From sequence record OL960573.1: 61,753 nt of DNA. The stretch is one strand, 5' to 3'. Position 1 is the stretch's first letter; the number at the start of each line of letters is the position of its first letter. Position numbers and translations under genes: made by a program. Below are positions 3,707 through 47,748 of the stretch, piece after piece. Below the pieces are notes generated by a model. That model had not been told where the DNA came from and did not search any database. It saw nothing but the letters and a program-made list of their open reading frames with translations. Origin of the DNA: Escherichia phage vB_EcoS_SA126VB.

Positions 3707-4579
3707 ATGAAAAAGAGTTCTGTAGCTATTAGTGTTGGTATGGCTTTAATTAATCCACGCGCTCGCGGTGAAGGTGATGTGGAACTGGAATACGAATATG
3801 CATCTGCGGAAGAGATCCCGGCAGAGTTTGCAACTCTTTACGCAGAGCAGGGCGGTAAATACGTTCTTGCAAAAGTTAAAGGTGTAGCCCCTGCTGATAG
3901 CGTTCGTCGTCTGGAAAGTGCGTTAGCTAAAGAACGTAACGACCATCGTCAGGTGAAGCAACAGATTAGCGCACTTGGGCGTCCGGTTGAAGAAGTCCTT
4001 GCGGACCTTGATCGTATCCCTCAACTGGAAGCTGCCGCTAACGGTAAAGGTACTCCGGAAGACATCGAAAAGATGGTTAAAGCCCGTCTTGCTCCGCTCG
4101 AGCGTCAATTACAAACTGTAGCAGCTGAACGCGATTCCGTTAAGCAGGAAATTGAAGGCTACCGCACTCGCGAAACTAAAGCGAAAATTAAAGACGCAGT
4201 TATTGCTGCTGCATCCGGTGCTAAGCTGCGTCCGTCTGCTATCGAAGATGCGGTGACTTATGCACAGTTGCAAATGACCGTCGACGAGAACGGCAATGTG
4301 GTTACGAAAGATGGGGCTGGTGTAACTCCATACCTGACTCCGGCTGATTGGCTGAACGAAATCCTTCCGAAACGTCCGCACTGGGTTGAAGGATCTGCTG
4401 GTGGCGGTGCGTCTGGTCCGGGCGCTGGCGGTCATCACGGTGAAGACCCATACAGTCACGACGGTTGGAACATCTCTAAGCAGATGAATCTCTGGAAAAC
4501 TAATCAATCTTTAGCTAAACGCTTAGCTGAAAAGAATGGCGTAGACCCGCTGAAGCCTGTACGTCCTGCTAAGAAATAA
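3707..4579 (+). CDS. putative scaffolding protein
   Basis: 290 aa, charged helical sequence between portal and major capsid genes; GGAGA RBS. Confidence 0.5.
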   Translation: MKKSSVAISVGMALINPRARGEGDVELEYEYASAEEIPAEFATLYAEQGGKYVLAKVKGVAPADSVRRLESALAKERNDHRQVKQQISALGRPVEEVLADLDRIPQLEAAANGKGTPEDIEKMVKARLAPLERQLQTVAAERDSVKQEIEGYRTRETKAKIKDAVIAAASGAKLRPSAIEDAVTYAQLQMTVDENGNVVTKDGAGVTPYLTPADWLNEILPKRPHWVEGSAGGGASGPGAGGHHGEDPYSHDGWNISKQMNLWKTNQSLAKRLAEKNGVDPLKPVRPAKK

Positions 4580-4580
4580 G

Positions 4581-4609
4581 TTGACATCCCGACGTCCCTG
4601 ATGTTAAGT
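4581..4609 (+). promoter_or_regulatory. sigma70-like promoter (TTGACA-17-TTAAGT) upstream of major capsid gene
   Basis: TTGACA at 4581-4586, 17-nt spacer, TTAAGT at 4604-4609; overlaps a 9-bp inverted repeat (CCCTGATGT/ACATCAGGG). Confidence 0.35.
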
Positions 4610-4701
4610 TTCAACACATCAGGGACACGGGTTCCTAAACAGCCTTCCACGGGGAAAGGCTACCAACAGTAAACAAATCAATCCTTTTCCTGGAGACAAG
4701 T

Positions 4702-5763
4702 ATGTCTAAATCTAAAATTATTCTACCATTTGGTCGTGGTGAAACTGACCTGACTCGTTTGAAGGATGTCATTGTCCCTGAGATCTTCACTGGTTATGTG
4801 CAGACGCAGACCGCCGAACTTTCTGCTCTGATCCAATCCGGTGCGGTTGTAATGGACGAGCGTTTATCTGCTAACCTTGCTGGTGCAGGTCTGACTTTTA
4901 ACGAGCCGTTCTATAACGACCTGAAAGATGAAGACGAAGATATCGCGGTTGATAAAGGCGATCCGTCCAAACCGTCTAACATTACTACCGGATCTGAAGT
5001 TCAGGTTCGTATGAGTCGTTCAAAATCCTGGGGTTCTGCGGATCTGGTATCTGCTTTGATCGGTAACGACCCAATGACCGCTATCGGTAACCGCGTGTCT
5101 GCGTGGTGGGTTCGCCGTCTGCAAGCTGCATACATCGCAACCTGGAAAGGCGTATTTGCTAATGCGAAGAAATCCCATAACGATGATCTGACGTTCGATA
5201 TTTCCGGTTCTTCATTTGTAAACAACCAGACCAACTTTACCGCGTCTAACTTCATCAACGCAACTGCAACGATGGGTGATGCTGCTCGCGGTCTGACTAT
5301 GATTATGGTACACTCTACCGTTCGTAACCGTATGCGTCAGTTGAACCTGATCGACTTCATTCCGGATGCTCGCGGTGAAACTCAGTTTGAGTATTATCAG
5401 GGCCTGCGTATTATCGAAGACGACTCCATGCCACACGATCCGTCTACTGGTGTGTTTGAAAGCTGGCTGTTCGGCCCGGGCGCAACTGCAATGGGTGCTG
5501 GATCACCGAAAGTTCCGACCGCTGTGGTGCGTGACGAAGCCGCTAACCAAGGCGCTGGTGAAGAAGTTCTTCACAACCGTGTTGAATGGATTCTGCATCC
5601 GGTTGGCCATGCTTGGGCTGCTGCTCAAACTGCTAAAGGTGGTCCGTCTAACGCTGCTACCACTAACAACCTGGCCCATGAAGATTCCTGGCGTCGTGCG
5701 TTCCCTGAGCGCAAGCAGCTTAAAGTTGCACGCCTGATTACTCGTGAGTATCAGGGTTCCTAA
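4702..5763 (+). CDS. major capsid protein
   Basis: 353 aa after scaffold gene, GGAGA RBS, followed by strong terminator; typical capsid size and position. Confidence 0.75.
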   Translation: MSKSKIILPFGRGETDLTRLKDVIVPEIFTGYVQTQTAELSALIQSGAVVMDERLSANLAGAGLTFNEPFYNDLKDEDEDIAVDKGDPSKPSNITTGSEVQVRMSRSKSWGSADLVSALIGNDPMTAIGNRVSAWWVRRLQAAYIATWKGVFANAKKSHNDDLTFDISGSSFVNNQTNFTASNFINATATMGDAARGLTMIMVHSTVRNRMRQLNLIDFIPDARGETQFEYYQGLRIIEDDSMPHDPSTGVFESWLFGPGATAMGAGSPKVPTAVVRDEAANQGAGEEVLHNRVEWILHPVGHAWAAAQTAKGGPSNAATTNNLAHEDSWRRAFPERKQLKVARLITREYQGS

Positions 5764-29986: not shown

Positions 29987-30213
29987 TAGCGATCCTCGAT
30001 TGCTCTAATTGTGGTTAAATCTAATTCGCAGGTTGGAGGGTATCCATAAAGTTCCATTTGTTTTCCTTGTGCATTAAACCATGTACCTGATGGATCCTGC
30101 CACTGCTTAGGTGTCTTGTGGAGAAATACTACTCTGTTTTCACCATAATAATTAATTCTTACTCCTGTGTGAGTATATTTACGTTTACCTTTTGGTCTTC
30201 TTAAGTTAGCCAT
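29986..30213 (-). CDS. hypothetical small protein
   Basis: 75 aa, Lys/Arg-rich N-terminus; start and stop both overlap neighbours. Confidence 0.4.
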   Translation of the reverse strand: MANLRRPKGKRKYTHTGVRINYYGENRVVFLHKTPKQWQDPSGTWFNAQGKQMELYGYPPTCELDLTTIRAIEDR

Positions 30214-31133
30214 CAGAACAACTCCATTACACGATCACGGAATGTGCCGTCATGGGTGGCGTTAATGTTTGCAGCAATTACACCATACGCCCATAAGTTG
30301 AAGGCAGCACGTGATTCATAGATTGTTGATAAACGTTCGTAAGTGAAACCGTTTTGCTCAAGGTATTTAAGGACAGCGTCTTGTTCGATTTCAGTTAATG
30401 TTGAAACATGCTTACCAAAATGATGGCGGTCCGGTGACTTATCTGATACGCGCATTGGTCCCCACGGAGGGGTAACCACACTTCCAAACGCTGCCGCTTG
30501 AATCCAGGAGGATGAGTCGCAGCTATACCACGGATAACGTTCCATGATGGTTGTTGACGTAATACCAAACGCATGAAGTTTAATCTTAGCACGTCCGCTA
30601 CCGTCGCAAATATATTTGTCCCACATGCGGTCAAGCCAAGTCTTAAGCGTGTCCGTGGAACGCCCTACCATGCCCCCGATGGTGATATATTCGTAGTTCT
30701 TCATGTAGTATTCAAGATAGCGGAAGTCTTCACCAAAGTGAAAGCAAGGTAACGGTTTAGCACCGCGTGCTTCCATTTCAAGCTGGTTACGGTAGGTTTG
30801 CAACGGGTCACCGATACCATCGAGTACCGACGCCATTACCGCACCATCTTCAACGCGAAGGATGTCTTTGTTGCGCTTAATGTATTCGCAGTATTCAACA
30901 ATATCAATGTGAGCACCTAAAGAATGTGCAGAGAATGCACCGGAGTCGAGAAATACTTTAGCCCCGTCCGCACGCATCTGATCAACATACTTTTGACGCC
31001 CAACGTAGTGATATGATTCCAAAATATGGGGCAGATTGCGCGTGATATTTTTCTCATGCTCAGACAGCTTTTCATAACGCTGCTGGCCAGGCATATATCC
31101 GTTCGTGTAAACTGCTGCCATAAAAACGTTCAT
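30213..31133 (-). CDS. dpdA: DpdA-like tRNA-guanine-transglycosylase-family protein (predicted DNA 7-deazaguanine transglycosylase)
   Basis: 306 aa; FLDSGAFS matches the TGT catalytic DSGGFQ region; no CxCxxC..H zinc motif; sits beside folE/queD/queC/queE. Confidence 0.65.
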   Translation of the reverse strand: MNVFMAAVYTNGYMPGQQRYEKLSEHEKNITRNLPHILESYHYVGRQKYVDQMRADGAKVFLDSGAFSAHSLGAHIDIVEYCEYIKRNKDILRVEDGAVMASVLDGIGDPLQTYRNQLEMEARGAKPLPCFHFGEDFRYLEYYMKNYEYITIGGMVGRSTDTLKTWLDRMWDKYICDGSGRAKIKLHAFGITSTTIMERYPWYSCDSSSWIQAAAFGSVVTPPWGPMRVSDKSPDRHHFGKHVSTLTEIEQDAVLKYLEQNGFTYERLSTIYESRAAFNLWAYGVIAANINATHDGTFRDRVMELF

Positions 31134-31352: not shown

Positions 31353-31389
31353 AAAAAGCCCATACCAGTATTATGACCGATATGGGCTT
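31353..31389 (-). terminator. rho-independent terminator after folE
   Basis: AAGCCCATA ... TATGGGCTT 9-bp stem followed on the minus strand by UUUUUAG. Confidence 0.55.
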
Positions 31390-31407: not shown

Positions 31408-32055
31408 TTATTTACAAGCTTCGAGGAACTCCCGGCGCCAATATGCACCCATATCGGTTCCCCCCAGCCCCGCGCGTGCGGTGCATCCGCGGAATGCTTT
31501 GGTAATAGTAGAGCTGCCGCATACCTGCTTAACACCGCGCGACTCCATGCACATATGCTTGGCGTCAATATAAACACATACAGCTTTCGGGTTTAAATGC
31601 TCCTGAATAGCGTCAGCAATCTGGTTAGTTAGACGCTCTTGCACTTGCAAGCGACGGCTAAAAGCATCAACCACGCGAGACAGTTTACTGAGCCCCACGA
31701 TGCGACCGTTAGGAACATACCCCACGACAGCGCGACCGATAATAGGGGCCATATGGTGTTCACAATGACTGTAAACAGGAATATCACGAACAATGACCAT
31801 TTCATTGGTGTTTTCCGCCCCATCCTCAAAGGTTTTAAACAGACCAGCAATATCTACATCGTAACCGCTAAACCATGTGGCATAAGCTTTAGCGACACGG
31901 TCTGGAGTCTCTGCTAATCCTGGACGTAATTCAATGCAATCTTCAATCTGAGTTAGTAAAGTATGCACCGCGCGAGCAATACGGAATTGAGTACCTTCAT
32001 TATCAATAGTAAATTTTGGCATGGTTTGCAGTTTCCTTGTTGTTAATGTGGTCAT
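31408..32055 (-). CDS. folE: GTP cyclohydrolase I
   Basis: 215 aa; [30 protein letters not shown] contains the FolE CEHH signature. Confidence 0.85.
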
Positions 32056-32057
32056 AC

Positions 32058-32549
32058 TTACAGACTATAGTTTACGTGACATTTCGAAGTTTCTTCGATG
32101 GTGCATTCTACAAGTTGAACACCATGTTCGTCAAGTAGTTGCGGTCCAATTACTTCAACCATATATGCAGCTAGGTTTTCGGCGGTAGGGTTGAACGGTA
32201 AAGATACCAGCGAGTTGTCAAAGTCCCTTACATCGTGACCCGTAGCTTCGTCACAAAGTTCAAGATCAACCTGAAGAGCTTTAATCAAAGGATCTTCTTC
32301 CCAGTGTAGGAATTTATGATCCCAATTATCTTCCAACCACTGGCAGAGCGTAGTTTTAACCACACTAAAATCGATAACTCGCCCAACGTCGTCCAGCAAA
32401 ATACTATTGATTTCTTGCGACCCTTTTTTCGGTGCAACCTTAAAGTGAAACTTATAGTTGTGACCATGAAGGTGACGACACTTACTTTCATGACCCACAA
32501 CACGGTGACCAGCGCAAATTTCATGTGAACGAATTACTGTATAACTCAT
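32058..32549 (-). CDS. queD: 6-carboxy-5,6,7,8-tetrahydropterin synthase
   Basis: 163 aa; CRHLHGHNY (CxxxHGH zinc motif); AGAGGT RBS. Confidence 0.85.
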
Positions 32550-33136
32550 TTTAATACCTCTTTAGACTGTTCAATTTCTAACGCACGTTGCGCCGACGCA
32601 ATAATGTCTTTCAGATCTTCTACCAGATTCTTATGACCGCGTTCGCCCGGCTGCAACGCCTTTTTAATCAAATGTTGTAAAGCTGGGTTAGTTGTGTTCC
32701 AAGCTTCCAAGACATCATAGACGTCCACGATGCATTTTACAACATTGCCGTTTTGATCTTTACCATAAATAACTTTCTGATATTTATTCATGGGAATTTT
32801 AGATGGTTCGTATTTCGTAAAAACTGCACCATTAAATGTATTACTTATGCTTATTCCAGAAGAAGGTTGATGGTACAATCCGGAGCGAGTGTTTTCGCTG
32901 GCTTGGTTGACGTAATCTTCCGCAACAATATATCGCCAGGCTATGATATCTTGAACTTTATAAGGGCTATTTTCATCCATAGCTGAACGCCCTTCCATAG
33001 CCCAATCCCATCCATGTAATAGATTCTTAACGTGTGTGCCGTTGCGCAAACGAACTTCAAACTTCTCATTACGAAGAAAAATAGGCATTCCTTTACCGTC
33101 GTGTAGGTGCCAAATTTTATTCAAATTATCTTTCAT
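32546..33136 (-). CDS. hypothetical protein embedded in 7-deazaguanine cluster
   Basis: 196 aa from ATG 33136 (stop of upstream gene 2 nt away); no recognisable QueF/ArcS/amidotransferase motif. Confidence 0.5.
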   Translation of the reverse strand: MKDNLNKIWHLHDGKGMPIFLRNEKFEVRLRNGTHVKNLLHGWDWAMEGRSAMDENSPYKVQDIIAWRYIVAEDYVNQASENTRSGLYHQPSSGISISNTFNGAVFTKYEPSKIPMNKYQKVIYGKDQNGNVVKCIVDVYDVLEAWNTTNPALQHLIKKALQPGERGHKNLVEDLKDIIASAQRALEIEQSKEVLK

Positions 33137-33138
33137 TT

Positions 33139-33618
33139 TTACGCTCTCGCTGTACGTGAATGAACTTCGTAAACAACCCAAAGGATAGCAGACGCTGTGA
33201 ACTTACTTAAGCTCATTGCTACCATCGATCCCGGATTAACAATACCTATAATACTTAAGAACACAATGGAGTCAATCGGTACAGCTACCAAAGAGCTGAT
33301 AAATACTCGTTGATGGAAAGGCTTCTTGGTGACCGTGTATACTACATAGTCCGCAAACTCACTAAGCGCAAAAGACGCAACGGATGCAACTACAACCGCA
33401 GGATCACCGAACACCCAGCTAAGAATGCAACCAACAATCATTGCAGGGATGACGCCTTTGCCAGCGTTACGCTGTGCGTAATCACGCAGAACAAAGATAA
33501 TGCCTACAAAGAAAGCCATCATGGGGACTACGCCAAGTGGCGTATTAAGCATCGGAAGGTAGGAAAAGCCCAGGTTTACGAATGTAATTGCAGCCAGATA
33601 AGCAACGATAAATTTCAT
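33139..33618 (-). CDS. putative queuosine-precursor (preQ0/preQ1) transporter, YhhQ/DUF165-like membrane protein
   Basis: 159 aa, 4-5 hydrophobic helices; loose resemblance to YhhQ; adjacent to queC; GGAGAA RBS. Confidence 0.4.
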   Translation of the reverse strand: MKFIVAYLAAITFVNLGFSYLPMLNTPLGVVPMMAFFVGIIFVLRDYAQRNAGKGVIPAMIVGCILSWVFGDPAVVVASVASFALSEFADYVVYTVTKKPFHQRVFISSLVAVPIDSIVFLSIIGIVNPGSMVAMSLSKFTASAILWVVYEVHSRTARA

Positions 33619-33738
33619 ACTTTTGTTCTCCAGTTTTAACAGCGCTATTCGCTGGTTGTTGGGTTTAAAAGCTTTAGTAGTATAGTTGGGTTACCGCACC
33701 CTAAACAATGCGCTAGCGGTGCGGTTTTCGCGGTAAGA

Positions 33739-34461
33739 TCAAATGTGTTTGCTGTAAGCCTTATCCATAAATTCGCTATAGCCTTTAGCGCGAAGTTTAC
33801 ACGCCGGGCATTCCCCGCAACCGTATCCCCAGTCATGCAGAGTACGACGGACGCCATTATAGCACGTATGGGACTGCTCAATTACTGTGGTTAAGAAACC
33901 AACCTTATCCGCCAGCTCAAACGTTTCTGCTTTATTTAAACGCATAAGCGGTGTAACAAAATGGATATCAGTTTCATATCCAACGTTTAATGTAGCTTCA
34001 AGAAGATCAACAAACTGCTGGCGGCAATCCGGATAACCGCTATAGTCTGTTTCACAAACGCCTGTAACCACATATCGAGCACCAACTTTCTGCGCGTAAG
34101 CGTGCGCGGTAGTAAGGAAAAGAGCATTACGGTTTGGCACAAAGCTTGCCGGAAGGTTGTTGTGCTGTTCGTGATGTTCGTTAACATCACCTTCGTCCCC
34201 GATTAAAGCGCTATTCCCAATCTGTTTCAAAGCAGGTAATTCAAAGACAACAAATGGGACATCGTGCTCTTTACAAATTTGATTAGCACAAGCCAGCTCA
34301 ATGTTATGACGTTGACCGTATGCAAAACCAATAGCGTAGACCTTATCATAGTTATTAAGGGCAAGGCCCAAACAGGTTACGCTGTCCTGGCCGCCAGACA
34401 GGACGACAACGGCGGAGTTATGATTTTTTACAGGGAATACCAGTTTATCTAATTTATTCAT
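33739..34461 (-). CDS. queC: 7-cyano-7-deazaguanine (preQ0) synthase
   Basis: 240 aa; PP-loop VVLSGGQDS; C-terminal Cys cluster CYNGV...CGECPAC; no fused amidotransferase domain. Confidence 0.85.
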   Translation of the reverse strand: MNKLDKLVFPVKNHNSAVVVLSGGQDSVTCLGLALNNYDKVYAIGFAYGQRHNIELACANQICKEHDVPFVVFELPALKQIGNSALIGDEGDVNEHHEQHNNLPASFVPNRNALFLTTAHAYAQKVGARYVVTGVCETDYSGYPDCRQQFVDLLEATLNVGYETDIHFVTPLMRLNKAETFELADKVGFLTTVIEQSHTCYNGVRRTLHDWGYGCGECPACKLRAKGYSEFMDKAYSKHI

Positions 34462-34462
34462 T

Positions 34463-34651
34463 TTAGAAACCTTTAAGGCTAATATTAAGGTTAACGACTA
34501 CTTGTTCAACTACATCTTCAGAGGCCATCTGACGCTTATGAATTTCAAGCTCCGAGTATATTTTCTTGGATGCAGCACGACAAATAGCGTCATTTAACTC
34601 GTCCTGTAAACGTTGAATCTTTTGCATAAGAATTACAGTCTCTTCATTCAT
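34463..34651 (-). CDS. hypothetical small protein
   Basis: 62 aa between queC and queE, ATG start. Confidence 0.4.
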   Translation of the reverse strand: MNEETVILMQKIQRLQDELNDAICRAASKKIYSELEIHKRQMASEDVVEQVVVNLNISLKGF

Positions 34652-34856
34652 CTACTTCACCTTTAATATCACAAGGGTTGATTGTTACGTTAGACATTAC
34701 AATTGGATGATTACGCGCTCCAATTGTACTAACGTAATTAATATCTAATTCTACATGCACGCCCTGCATAGTAGCGTGAGCAATCGAAGAATTAAGTTTT
34801 TCTACCAGCTCAGTAATCATTTCCTGATGCTGTTTCGCTTCTTCCAAAGTGATCAT
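34644..34856 (-). CDS. hypothetical small protein
   Basis: 70 aa between queC and queE; stop overlaps queE start region. Confidence 0.4.
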   Translation of the reverse strand: MITLEEAKQHQEMITELVEKLNSSIAHATMQGVHVELDINYVSTIGARNHPIVMSNVTINPCDIKGEVDE

Positions 34857-35563
34857 TATTCCACCCCGATATATTTGTGAACCTGAAGCTGCAACGTGTA
34901 ACCGTGTTTCATACAGCTTTGGACAACGGCTTGGATGTTACTGTGGTTAAGGTTTTCATCCTGCTCGTCCATTGGCTGTAAATATATCTTACCCTTGAAC
35001 CCCTTCGGAGGTCTAGCGATAAATGGCGTAGCTTGATGATCTAATGCTTGAAAAGGTAAACCATCTACCACGTTTACACAGCACGCTTTAAGTACATATT
35101 TAAATGCATTAGCGCGGTACAGCACAGAAGGGTGAATCTTTGAGGTTTTGGGGCTACATACAATCACAGGTAACTGGGAAAAGTTCTTAGGTAAAGGCAT
35201 AGACCCATTAGTCTCAATTTGCACCAAATACCCGCGCGATAACAGTTGTTCGACAAACGGGTTAATTTGCTGGCGGAATGGTTCACCCCCAGTAATAACC
35301 ACAAGTGATGTGCTATTGCCTGATTCCAGCTTACGGCTTTCGATTAAACGCATAATATCGACAATATGATAAAGACTACGACCAACAGTATAATCCGTAT
35401 CACAGCCAGGACATTGCAGGTTGCACCCAGCAAGACGCACAAATACAGCAGGTTGGCCGCAAAATGGACCTTCACCCTGAATGGTAGAGAATACCGAATG
35501 CACGTCTAAATACATATCGTTTTCTTTAGAACGGGACTCGGGAGCTTGTTGATTAATATTCAT
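34856..35563 (-). CDS. queE: 7-carboxy-7-deazaguanine synthase (radical SAM)
   Basis: 235 aa; RLAGCNLQCPGCDTDY (CX3CX2C radical-SAM motif); AGAGGA RBS. Confidence 0.8.
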   Translation of the reverse strand: MNINQQAPESRSKENDMYLDVHSVFSTIQGEGPFCGQPAVFVRLAGCNLQCPGCDTDYTVGRSLYHIVDIMRLIESRKLESGNSTSLVVITGGEPFRQQINPFVEQLLSRGYLVQIETNGSMPLPKNFSQLPVIVCSPKTSKIHPSVLYRANAFKYVLKACCVNVVDGLPFQALDHQATPFIARPPKGFKGKIYLQPMDEQDENLNHSNIQAVVQSCMKHGYTLQLQVHKYIGVE

Positions 35564-35576
35564 CTTAAATCCTCTA

Positions 35577-35606
35577 GTGAAAAAGAAAGCGCCTCATTGG
35601 GCGCTT
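35577..35606 (-). terminator. rho-independent terminator upstream of queE
   Basis: AAAGCGCC-tcatt-GGCGCTTT followed on the minus strand by UUCUUUUUC. Confidence 0.55.
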
Positions 35607-35632
35607 TCATTATAACGTGATATGTTTTGATA

Positions 35633-36436
35633 TTACAAGCCGTTCAGGGCTTCCGGTACTGGCATAGGCACGCGACCAGTTATACCATTGAACTTCTTCC
35701 AACGTGCATACTGAGTTTTAACAGTATCTTCGTTCAGACCGTGACGACCTGCCAGATTCAGGACATAAGAGATCGGAGCAGGCTGACCCAGTGTAGCGCT
35801 AATCTGATCCATCAGAGCCCAGGCACGACCGCAGGAAGTTTCAGGTTGCGGACGACGAACACCATTCTGTTCCGGCATACGGTTCGCTTCTTTCGCTTTC
35901 ACACGTTCAGCTTTTTCGCGGGCTTTTTCAGCAGCCTTTTCAGCCTGTTTAGCAGCGCGGATCTTGTCTTTGAAGCTTTTAATAGACGAATCCAGTTCGT
36001 CAACCATGCTCTGAGCAGCAGTTACTGCACCGGACAGATCTTCGCCTTTGGATTTTTTAACAACTGCTTTCAGCTCTTTCAGAGCATTCTTTAAATGCTT
36101 CAGCTGTTCAGAACCCTTAGATTCTGCTTCCGTAATCTGTTCAACAGTGCTTTCATCGGTAATACCGGATAAAGCAAACTTCACGGTTTCAACTGCCTGG
36201 GAAAGAGCGGTAAATTTATTTTCCGCTTCAGTACGGATTTCAGCTTGTTTCTTTTCAGCGGCAGCTTTTTTCTCTGCTTCTTTTTTCTCTTTTGCTACGC
36301 GTGCAGCTTCAGCGGCAGCGGCTTTTTTAGCTTCTGCGTCGTTAGCAGTAGCTTCTTTCTTTGCAGGCTTAGCAGATTTTGCAGCGGCAGCAGCGGCTGC
36401 GGCAGCAGCGGCTTTCTTATCTTCAATATTACTCAT
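35633..36436 (-). CDS. Ala/Lys-rich protein with basic low-complexity N-terminus
   Basis: ATG 36436 with GGAG RBS (track start is GTG); N-terminal AAAAAAAAAAAKSAKPAKKE...; globular C-terminus. Confidence 0.5.
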   Translation of the reverse strand: MSNIEDKKAAAAAAAAAAAKSAKPAKKEATANDAEAKKAAAAEAARVAKEKKEAEKKAAAEKKQAEIRTEAENKFTALSQAVETVKFALSGITDESTVEQITEAESKGSEQLKHLKNALKELKAVVKKSKGEDLSGAVTAAQSMVDELDSSIKSFKDKIRAAKQAEKAAEKAREKAERVKAKEANRMPEQNGVRRPQPETSCGRAWALMDQISATLGQPAPISYVLNLAGRHGLNEDTVKTQYARWKKFNGITGRVPMPVPEALNGL

Positions 36437-36563
36437 TTTCTTCACTCCGAATTATTATGGGTTCGTTTGTTACCAACGGGGTTAAATGTACCAAAGGATT
36501 TTGTGACACGCAACCACTTACATAAACATTTTTAAAAATATTTTTGATCAGGGTTAGAACTTA

Positions 36564-37070: not shown

Positions 37071-37102
37071 TAAATAAGTAATGCCCCAATAGTAGGGGCA
37101 TT
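37071..37102 (-). terminator. terminator after helicase gene
   Basis: AATGCCCC-aatagta-GGGGCATT followed on the minus strand by ACUUAUUUA. Confidence 0.5.
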
Positions 37103-37117
37103 AGATGTTGAAGTCAA

Positions 37118-42644: not shown

Positions 42645-43147
42645 AGAGGTCTTTCACTCCCGTGGTTTTGGTTAAAGTTATAGTCACGTTCTGCTTGTTT
42701 TCGAATACGAACAGCTTCATTGAAATTTTCAAAATATCCAAGAAATTTTTCTTTTCTGTTAATCCGTATATAAGCTCTCCATTTACCTCTCTTTTTGCAC
42801 CAAAGCACTCCAACTTGACCGCTTTTGTTATTAGCTGGTTTGCGCCTATTACACGCATTAACTTGATGCGTAACAGATTTTAAATTTGTGCGACGGTTAT
42901 TTAACCCATTTCCGTCATCATGATCAATTTCTTCAGGTTCTTCATCATAGAGCATTTTCCAGATTATACGATGTGCTTTATATAATACTCCATCAATACG
43001 CAATACTAGATAGCTTTTACCATCCGGTTGCGTTACAACAGTACCCGCAGGTTCCATTGTTTCATAACGAATTAAAATACCTGTCTCTTCGCAATAATAG
43101 AATAAACTGTCTAAAATGTCTTTATCTGGTGTTCCTCGTATATGCAT
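42641..43147 (-). CDS. HNH homing endonuclease (HNH_3 plus AP2-like domain)
   Basis: IDHDDGNGLNNRRTNLKSV HNH core, AP2-like KSGQVGVLW..GKWRAYI; ATG 43147 with GGAGGTGA RBS (track start is TTG). Confidence 0.7.
   Translation of the reverse strand: MHIRGTPDKDILDSLFYYCEETGILIRYETMEPAGTVVTQPDGKSYLVLRIDGVLYKAHRIIWKMLYDEEPEEIDHDDGNGLNNRRTNLKSVTHQVNACNRRKPANNKSGQVGVLWCKKRGKWRAYIRINRKEKFLGYFENFNEAVRIRKQAERDYNFNQNHGSERPL
42935..42976. repeat. 42-bp exact repeat, copy 1 (inside HNH gene)
   Basis: aggttcttcatcatagagcattttccagattatacgatgtgc is identical at 47482-47523; encodes AHRIIWKMLYDEEP on the minus strand. Confidence 0.9.
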
Positions 43148-47404: not shown

Positions 47405-47748
47405 TTACCCCTTAAGTTTTGAATCATTCTATCACAGGCAGCTTTTACAGAAGAATTTTGCCAGTCTTCCTCAATTTGTGAAGGTTCTTCATCATAGAGC
47501 ATTTTCCAGATTATACGATGTGCCAGATAATGAAGACCGTCTAGACCAACAAGAATATAAACGTTTCGGTCTTTAACAACAGCGCGACCAGCTTCTTTTC
47601 CTGCGAACTGAGAGTTGAATTTGGAACAAGCTCTTTGTGTTTTAAAGAACTTTAAAGGCGCTTTCTTCCATCTTAAAATGCCAGTCTCTTCATTATACTC
47701 AAAACGATCATGCAAATAGTCAAATGAAGGTAAAGGTCTAAATTTCAT
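47401..47748 (-). CDS. truncated, degenerate HNH-endonuclease-like paralog (possibly non-functional)
   Basis: Shares YNEETGIL and AHRIIWKMLYDEEP with the 42641 HNH gene; catalytic IDHxDGN replaced by IEEDWQN; no AP2 domain; ATG 47748 with weak RBS. Confidence 0.4.
   Translation of the reverse strand: MKFRPLPSFDYLHDRFEYNEETGILRWKKAPLKFFKTQRACSKFNSQFAGKEAGRAVVKDRNVYILVGLDGLHYLAHRIIWKMLYDEEPSQIEEDWQNSSVKAACDRMIQNLRGK
47482..47523. repeat. 42-bp exact repeat, copy 2
   Basis: Identical to 42935-42976. Confidence 0.9.

Follow-up and report, generated by a model that had tools for sequence, protein, structure and literature searches.

In E. coli, uptake of the 7-deazaguanine base preQ0 requires YhhQ, a protein with six transmembrane (TM) segments and a C-in topology that works in a host without ECF modules (PMC5372724). 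Specificity varies within COG1738, the group to which this protein belongs, as E. coli YhhQ takes up both preQ0 and preQ1 and a Chlamydia homologue takes up queuine (PMC11130926). A phage-borne relative has been described in phage CAjan, where Kot et al. 2020 listed yhhQ among the six assignable genes of a twelve-gene cluster (PMC7544227) and Olsen et al. 2023 placed it directly 3' of queC (PMC10484667); the gene has been called a putative preQ0 transporter (PMC7544227, PMC10484667). Deletions of folE, queC and dpdA led to loss of modification in CAjan. Deletion of yhhQ with CRISPR-Cas9 left nanopore modification profiles and restriction resistance as in the wild type, and the deletion mutant grown in BHI contained dPreQ0 at the wild-type level (PMC7544227). 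The gene and its proposed role are already known from GenBank annotations and from three papers on CAjan and related phages, and one deletion mutant has been made. We regard the present observation as ordinary. With YhhQ and a complete preQ0 pathway present in the host, any gain for the phage is questionable.

The stretch of DNA analysed here (61,753 nt; hereafter the window) belongs to a Seuratvirus-like (Queuovirinae) coliphage. The 2 kb around its yhhQ-like gene share 93-96% nucleotide identity with approximately 35 GenBank phages, including SLUR76, SeppeHuegi, Greed, Seurat and CSP1, and a 281-nt stretch spanning the spacer upstream of the gene is 94.7% identical to CAjan. For CAjan (gp41, YP_009196835.1), Greed, CSP1C, SA80RD, Skure and the BASEL phages, the annotated product of the orthologue is a 'preQ0 transporter', with or without 'putative' before it. 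A previous sequence-only reading of this DNA had placed a 159-aa ORF beside queC with a 120-bp spacer upstream of it, and both placements were confirmed. The ORF, a short VUT/YhhQ-like membrane protein gene homologous to CAjan gp41, occupies 33139..33618 on the minus strand and starts with ATG; the spacer runs from 33619 to 33738 and is exactly 120 nt long, as queC ends at 33739. A Shine-Dalgarno (SD) motif, GGAG, was read from the sequence at 33628..33631 (minus strand), 9 nt 5' of the ATG, and is invariant across all aligned relatives.

Every gene of the cluster region lies on the minus strand. In order of transcription these are queE, encoding the radical SAM 7-carboxy-7-deazaguanine synthase (34856..35563; weak Radical_SAM and Fer4_12 matches, with a QueE annotation in relatives); two small ORFs; queC, encoding 7-cyano-7-deazaguanine synthase (33739..34461; PF06508, 251.5 bits); the 120-nt spacer; the 159-aa ORF; a 196-aa ORF (32546..33136); queD (32058-32549; PF01242, 86.4 bits); folE (31408-32055; PF01227, 211.8 bits); a 77-aa ORF; and dpdA, encoding the DNA guanine transglycosylase (30213..31133; phrog_887 at 8e-96 and annotated in relatives). 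Pfam and PHROGs matches place the 159-aa gene within a dpdA-folE-queD-queC-queE cluster. The 196-aa ORF, which is taken from the ORF list and the sequence, has its ATG at 33136, 2 nt past the stop codon of the 159-aa ORF; it falls into phrog_23361 ('unknown') and had neither a Pfam nor a PDB match. Comparison with yong3 and L089 gave identities of 84, 91-95 and 51-55% at codon positions 1, 2 and 3 of the 159-aa gene, a pattern of purifying selection.

The loose resemblance to YhhQ/DUF165 that had been noted from the sequence proved to be real homology. Vut_1 (PF02592) is the sole Pfam match of the window protein and was found at 25.3 bits (E 2e-5) over residues 66-145 only; the search against this family, which had been proposed as a check, thus yielded a match, but one below the gathering cut-off of 27.2 bits. 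The equivalog model TIGR00697 ('queuosine precursor transporter') scored 22.2 bits over residues 70-128 against a cut-off of 50.95, and for this reason the protein should not be named a YhhQ equivalog. PHROGs assigns it to phrog_4899, 'unknown function'. Direct comparison with E. coli YhhQ was uninformative, with no significant similarity by BLASTP of the 159-aa protein (E 1.3) or by hhalign of the short family against the single E. coli sequence (E 0.025, 2% probability), and we therefore used a bridging group of actinobacterial-type members. A phmmer search of 5.8 billion proteins returned 108 relatives, nearly all of 150-165 aa, and also reached a group of 183-201 aa at E values of 1e-13 to 1e-7. 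All four scanned members of this longer group exceeded the Vut_1 cut-off (35-45 bits), some are named 'queuosine precursor transporter' by JGI, and hhalign joined the short family to the group with a probability of 99.4% (E 2.9e-21, 139 columns of 159 positions). Among the short proteins themselves, Vut_1 was matched by 45 of 45 aligned members at E<=0.01 (best 1.3e-8), and the relatives from yong3 (27.7 bits), P0064 (34.0) and P0094 (30.0) lie above its cut-off. The profile of the short family, run exhaustively against 1.84 billion cluster representatives, reached 1315 proteins at E<=1e-3, of which 617 were at E<=1e-10. Judged by these sequence comparisons, the short family is a distinct, moderately sized and mostly phage-borne branch of COG1738 and not its bulk. 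The earlier suggestion of a distinct family therefore holds for a subfamily, and not for a family separate from VUT.

The sequence-only reading was right that the window protein is shorter than bacterial YhhQ (159 aa versus 221 aa). Its proposal that the protein is truncated can be set aside, because the phage family as a whole measures 150-165 aa and its alignment with E. coli YhhQ extends from one terminus to the other. Of the 62 residues that the E. coli protein has in addition, some extend the N-terminus and the C-terminus, 20 form an insertion separating helices 3 and 4, and two further insertions measure 5 and 6 aa. Residues N15, D46, R50, G53, S67, A78, S79, D90, S108, D116 and F120 are invariant and common to the short family and E. 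coli YhhQ, and the polar residues R45, D46, Q49, R50, E87, D90 and D116 are invariant inside the helices of 45 diverse members. Hydropathy analysis predicts six hydrophobic segments, and the placement of K/R-rich loops (residues 45-54, 98-104 and 155-158) is compatible, by the positive-inside prediction, with six helices in an N-in/C-in orientation, in agreement with the multi-pass membrane protein that had been proposed. An AF2 model built with the family alignment contains six helices (pLDDT 83, pTM 0.72). This modelled bundle superposes on solved S-components, and a 'putative vitamin uptake transporter' is its second-best match in BFVD. Such a fold agrees with the TCDB placement of COG1738 in the VUT/ECF family and with E. 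coli K-12 having no ECF modules (PMC5372724). Searches by sequence found no PDB chain related to YhhQ or to the short family, and no EcfT/EcfA component occurs among the scanned cluster ORFs. As modelled, the 'short' protein represents an S-component-like permease in complete, minimal form and not a fragment, and we infer a solitary mode of transport without an EcfT/EcfAA' module. Were transport to be demonstrated, the 150-165-aa family would offer a small model for solitary S-component transport.

Gene context was examined within 4 kb of the family gene in 80 IMG/VR loci encoding a short-family member. The genes folE, queD, queC and queE are nearby in ten of these loci only, namely the closest, Queuovirinae-like ones with at least 55% identity. 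A DpdA-family gene, recognized by ORF clustering, is present in 50 of the 80, and its representative matches phrog_887, the PHROG of the window DpdA, at 3e-42. In 41 loci the DpdA gene starts 0-260 nt 3' of the VUT gene and preQ0 synthesis genes are absent within 4 kb. For approximately nine further loci, the immediate downstream gene belongs to phrog_15826 ('unknown'), a remote DpdA relative (hhalign 89.6%, E 2e-6), which brings the loci with an adjacent DpdA or DpdA-like gene to about 60 of the 80. An ORF of 80-110 aa lies between the VUT gene and dpdA in 25 loci; the best PDB match of its profile is the archaeosine synthase QueF-Like 5jyx (E 2.6e-4, 70 of 83 positions, invariant Cys-Pro included). 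QueF-L acts on preQ0, and DpdA uses preQ0. In about 20 of the 80 loci the VUT gene is part of a replication module, flanked by SSB or Sak4 on one side and a Cas4-like exonuclease on the other, and no deazaguanine gene was found within 4 kb in these. A compact VUT/QueF-L-like/DpdA unit without biosynthesis genes has the look that would be expected of a salvage-fed DNA modification system. The linkage to DpdA is the best comparative evidence so far that this family feeds DNA modification by salvage, and it qualifies, at the level of local gene order, the 'no correlation' remark of Hutinet 2019. Transport, if true, would also explain how phages without biosynthesis genes are supplied with 7-deazaguanine. 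Gene context argues that the family carries a 7-deazaguanine base, probably preQ0, and the salvage role given in published annotations is plausible.

The spacer between queC and the yhhQ-like gene contains two hairpins and a conserved leader. On the gene strand its RNA reads UGA-UCUUACCGCGAAA-(ACCGCACC G CUAG CGCAUUGU UUAG GGUGCGGU)-AACCCAACUAUACUACUAAAGCUUUUAAACCCAACAAC-(CAGCG AAUAG CGCUG)-UUAAAACUGGAGAACAAAAGU-AUG. Hairpin 1 (33693..33725, minus strand; 8+4 bp stem, dG -17.6 kcal/mol) begins 13 nt past the queC stop codon and corresponds to the 8-bp stem hairpin of the sequence-only reading. The inverted repeat ACCGCACC...GGTGCGGT named there does exist, but its arms lie at 33693-33700 and 33718-33725, so that the hairpin spans 33693-33725 and not 33697-33730, a displacement of 4-5 nt. 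With four inner pairs on the gene strand the stem grows to 12 bp, interrupted by one bulge and closed by a loop of 8 nt. In shuffled sequences, perfect 8-bp stems with loops of 3-20 nt arise at a rate of 18.7 per 61.7 kb, or approximately 0.04 per 120 nt, a rarity which is unusual but not decisive alone; the hairpin is accepted as real because of its conservation in relatives. It is present in every Seuratvirus-like sequence found. Its outer CC/GG pairs have become GG/CC in yong3, L089 and L104, and in STP-SP5 the register of the stem has shifted and further inner G-C pairs have arisen. All of the variants retain folding energies between -16 and -20 kcal/mol, and this maintenance of folding despite sequence change indicates that the stem is selected. 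Directly 3' of the stem the window has AACCCAACUA and relatives have UAACCCAAU or UAACACAAU, and a U-tract occurs in none. Neither hairpin 1 nor the leader recurs elsewhere in the 61.7-kb window, in which AACCCAAC has five occurrences against 2.1 expected and TTTTAAACCCAAC has no second exact copy. Other candidate elements were discarded: a plus-strand terminator (stem followed by TTTTC) is confined to the closest relatives, an alternative pairing of TTACCGC with GCGGTAA is not conserved, and comparison by eye with the consensus matched no PurR box at the 3' end of queC. A survey of hairpins upstream of the 69 distinct family members gave too noisy a picture for statistics.

The 62 nt next to the start codon (33619..33680, minus strand) form a leader that is 86-90% identical to those of yong3, L089 and STP-SP5, as compared to 51-71% identity at third codon positions of the adjacent gene in the same three relatives. 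Nearly all leader differences fall in the loop of hairpin 2 (33640..33654, minus strand; CAGCG-AAUAG-CGCUG, 5-bp stem), where the variants AAUAG, AAUAA, AACAG, AAUAC, AUACA and UUUAG occur and the stem is kept. Changes in this stem comprise one G-C to A-U and two G-C to G-U replacements, the latter being compatible with a sense-strand RNA only. In the predicted leader fold, CCCA pairs with UGG(A)G of the SD and CUUUU with the AAAAG next to the AUG; these pairs are invariant and give no covariation support, neither for nor against the fold, and folding of the spacer in full reaches a z-score of only -1.87. Pattern scans of IMG/VR and metagenomes found the leader in Seuratvirus-like contigs only, as 15 distinct variants plus one chance match, and divergence among these variants is too little for covariation to resolve the fold. 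Relatives of the gene at 64-68% identity have queC overlapping it by 4 nt, another has a 95-aa ORF filling the queC-yhhQ gap and L013 has a canonical terminator, GGGCCAG...CTGGCCC TTTTT, in the same place after queC. As the spacer is absent or replaced in these relatives, the RNA element is not an obligatory regulator of the gene. The spacer is thus best described, by inference, as a lineage-specific intercistronic stem-loop plus structured leader, and it is under strong sequence constraint in Seuratviruses.

The reading that we find reasonably probable as a whole is of a minimal VUT-family permease importing 7-deazaguanine for DpdA, together with a lineage-specific intercistronic RNA that does not sense a ligand; it takes homology, fold, gene context and conservation as observed and draws from them the substrate, the direction of transport and the role of the RNA elements. 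The protein would be made during infection from a queE-queC-yhhQ-...-queD-folE transcript as a minimal six-helix inner-membrane permease with a solitary ECF S-component fold, and would work without an ATPase module, like host YhhQ. It would import a free 7-deazaguanine base, most likely preQ0, from the medium. This base would supplement the preQ0 made by phage FolE, QueD, QueE and QueC, with DpdA swapping it into phage DNA, and the importer would therefore be auxiliary in this phage. A VUT permease with another substrate (preQ1, queuine, another 7-deazaguanine or an unrelated vitamin or purine), or an exporter, appears unlikely. It would fit with the differing specificities of characterised COG1738 members (PMC11130926), with the status of the short family as a separate branch of 1315 cluster representatives at E<=1e-3, with the branch-conserved RDYAQR where E. 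coli YhhQ has TDLTVR and with the lack of a dPreQ0 phenotype of the CAjan deletion; these points are set against tight linkage to DpdA, QueF-L or the preQ0 cluster in about 60 of 80 loci, DpdA and QueF-L being users of preQ0, and no linkage to any other pathway was seen in the 80 loci. The missing CAjan phenotype could also be taken to mean that the protein is not a transporter at all. Small multi-pass phage membrane proteins often have superinfection-exclusion or holin-like roles, and a decaying gene would be a further form of this explanation. We judge it very improbable given transporter-family homology over the full length, the S-component fold, purifying selection, the invariant polar helix residues of 45 members and the conserved DpdA linkage.

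For the spacer, our preferred reading is that hairpin 1 and the leader most likely tune the continuation or survival of the queC transcript into yhhQ, and yhhQ translation; a weak terminator, a stability element and an SD-masking leader are possible modes, none of them involving ligand sensing. Hairpin 1 might instead be a genuine terminator of the queE-queC transcript, with yhhQ and downstream genes served by a separate promoter. The SA80RD GenBank record labels it a rho-independent 'terminator' (WebGeSTer), further gene boundaries in this module also have hairpins (35585-35608, 37079-37103 and 31356-31389) and L013 has its canonical terminator in the equivalent place. The stem is followed by AACCCAAC on the gene strand, however, no variant has a U-tract and a consensus terminator scan did not call it. 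There is also no conserved sigma-70 promoter between hairpin 1 and the ATG, the candidate TTGTTT-18-TATACT being weak and its TATACT lost in STP-SP5, yong3 and L089. Moreover, queD and folE, which are needed for preQ0 synthesis, lie downstream, and sister lineages couple queC and the gene translationally, such that we consider a genuine terminator possible but doubtful. A ligand-sensing riboswitch controlling yhhQ, whether a divergent preQ1 type or a new class, is suggested by the frequent position of preQ1 riboswitches before bacterial yhhQ genes (PMC5372724), by a leader far more conserved than synonymous sites with a predicted fold that masks the SD, and by a superficial resemblance of hairpin 2 plus UUAAAAC to the preQ1-I P1 stem with its A-rich tail. 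We give this explanation next to no probability. At E<=10, cmscan of 33000-34000 (1 kb) and of 33600-33760 (161 nt) returned only chance miRNA and snoRNA matches (E ~9), which bears out the doubt about a preQ1-I riboswitch already voiced from the sequence; scans of 37 other viral loci carrying the gene were likewise negative for preQ1 riboswitches; the freely varying 5-nt loop of hairpin 2 cannot be a conserved ligand pocket; and relatives at 64-69% identity lack the spacer, the element being confined to Seuratvirus-like contigs. Conservation well above synonymous sites and the predicted SD masking also prompt the idea that the 62-nt leader and hairpin 1 form a new cis-regulatory RNA gating importer translation, with the 7-deazaguanine pool or a protein of phage or host as the signal, an idea that we hold to be a long shot. 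A tuning role of the spacer remains the reading that we prefer.

Set against known systems, the spacer has some features of two classes of RNA element. It shares with the Rfam families PreQ1, preQ1-II and preQ1-III a position 5' of a yhhQ-type gene, a small hairpin, an A-rich stretch and an SD, but differs in having no covariance-model match, a loop that is too short and variable and an element that is absent from sister lineages. Hairpin 1 resembles intrinsic terminators as a GC-rich stem-loop right after a stop codon but has no U-tract on the transcribed strand. The protein differs in sequence from the solitary and ECF-dependent S-components (RibU 3p5n, BtuM 8ovv, FolT, BioY and ThiT), with an identity of 6-17%; its length of 159 aa is usual for the fold, those compared measuring 155-197 aa. 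E. coli YhhQ/QPTR (COG1738, PF02592, TIGR00697) is a full-length homologue of approximately 20% identity with six TM segments in both proteins, and both are linked to queuosine or 7-deazaguanine genes; the window protein differs in having neither the N- and C-terminal extensions nor the 20 residues inserted between helices 3 and 4. The closest counterparts are CAjan gp41 and its orthologues in Seurat, Greed, SA80RD and the BASEL phages, which occupy the same slot between queC and a hypothetical ORF, and the spacers of CAjan and other Seuratvirus records have an identical arrangement of hairpin and leader. There is no difference of substance from this group, and the window represents a further isolate or contig of these phages.

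Among the viral loci of IMG/VR that encode short VUT family members (relatives of the 159-aa YhhQ-like putative preQ0 transporter of the window), a three-gene unit was observed, in which a short VUT gene is followed by an ORF of 80–110 aa and then by a short DpdA (225–255 aa), the DNA guanine transglycosylase. This compact unit is found in L024, L029–L032, L034–L039, L041, L052–L056, L059, L061–L064, L078, L085 and L087; it lies at about positions 4000–5450 in most loci. The top PDB match of the middle ORF is the archaeosine synthase QueF-Like (5jyx, E 2.6e-4), and no preQ0 synthesis genes occur within 4 kb in these loci. The compact VUT/QueF-L-like/DpdA arrangement looks like a DNA-modification module fed by salvage.

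The window itself carries a preQ0/DNA-modification cluster. Here the VUT gene is followed by a 196-aa ORF (32546–33136, minus strand), whose ATG lies 2 nt past the VUT stop codon and which belongs to phrog_23361, labelled 'unknown'. Searches of this ORF against Pfam and PDB gave no match, and its C-terminal ~60–100 residues match several further PHROGs, all of unknown function. In the relatives L012, L014 and L016 its homologue is positioned upstream of the VUT gene, unlike its downstream location in the window. Between queE and queC are two short, conserved ORFs (62 and 70 aa; 34463–34856, minus strand), assigned to phrog_24420 and phrog_26258; PHROGs and the annotation of the related coliphage CAjan both label the second 'radical SAM domain-containing protein', despite its length of just 70 residues. 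An Ala/Lys/Glu-rich protein of 270 aa (35633–36445, minus strand) contains a poly-Ala run of 11 residues and is annotated in relatives as 'transcriptional activator FtrA domain-containing protein'.

A sigma-70-like site, TTGACT-16-TATTAT (33248–33275, minus strand, 10/12 match), lies within the VUT gene, in its 3' portion, and upstream of the 196-aa ORF, queD and folE. This site may be a chance occurrence, because the 17 such sites in the region represent no excess over the 14.9 found in shuffles. Further strong hairpins are present at module gene boundaries (31356–31389, 35585–35608 and 37079–37103, all minus strand); a clear T-run is found only at 35585–35608. In the hairpin at 31356–31389, the loop overlaps a promoter-like CATAAT, and the annotation of the related phage SA80RD gives the corresponding element as a terminator and a promoter that overlap. 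Where an SSB gene precedes VUT in the viral loci (L019, L021, L022, L025, L026, L033 and L046), a GC-rich terminator-like hairpin sits 20–50 nt upstream of the VUT start, often with a C/T-rich tail rather than a pure T-run. Elsewhere, the longest repeat of the window is a 53-nt direct repeat (42924–42976 and 47471–47523), with copies 94% identical and 4.5 kb apart.

The phage DpdA of the window (30213–31133, minus strand) was recognized by PHROGs only: it had no Pfam match at E<=0.1 and scored 16.9 bits against the NCBIfam DpdA model, under the cut-off of 200. Directly 3' of the VUT gene in L051, L058, L066, L068–L071 and L076 is a 208-aa family, listed in PHROGs as phrog_15826, 'unknown function'. 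Alignment of this family with the DpdA family by hhalign gave 89.6% (E 1.9e-6), and the motifs DNG.F, PDV.GD, GG and H.GR are common to both. The phrog_15826 family is a remote relative of DpdA.
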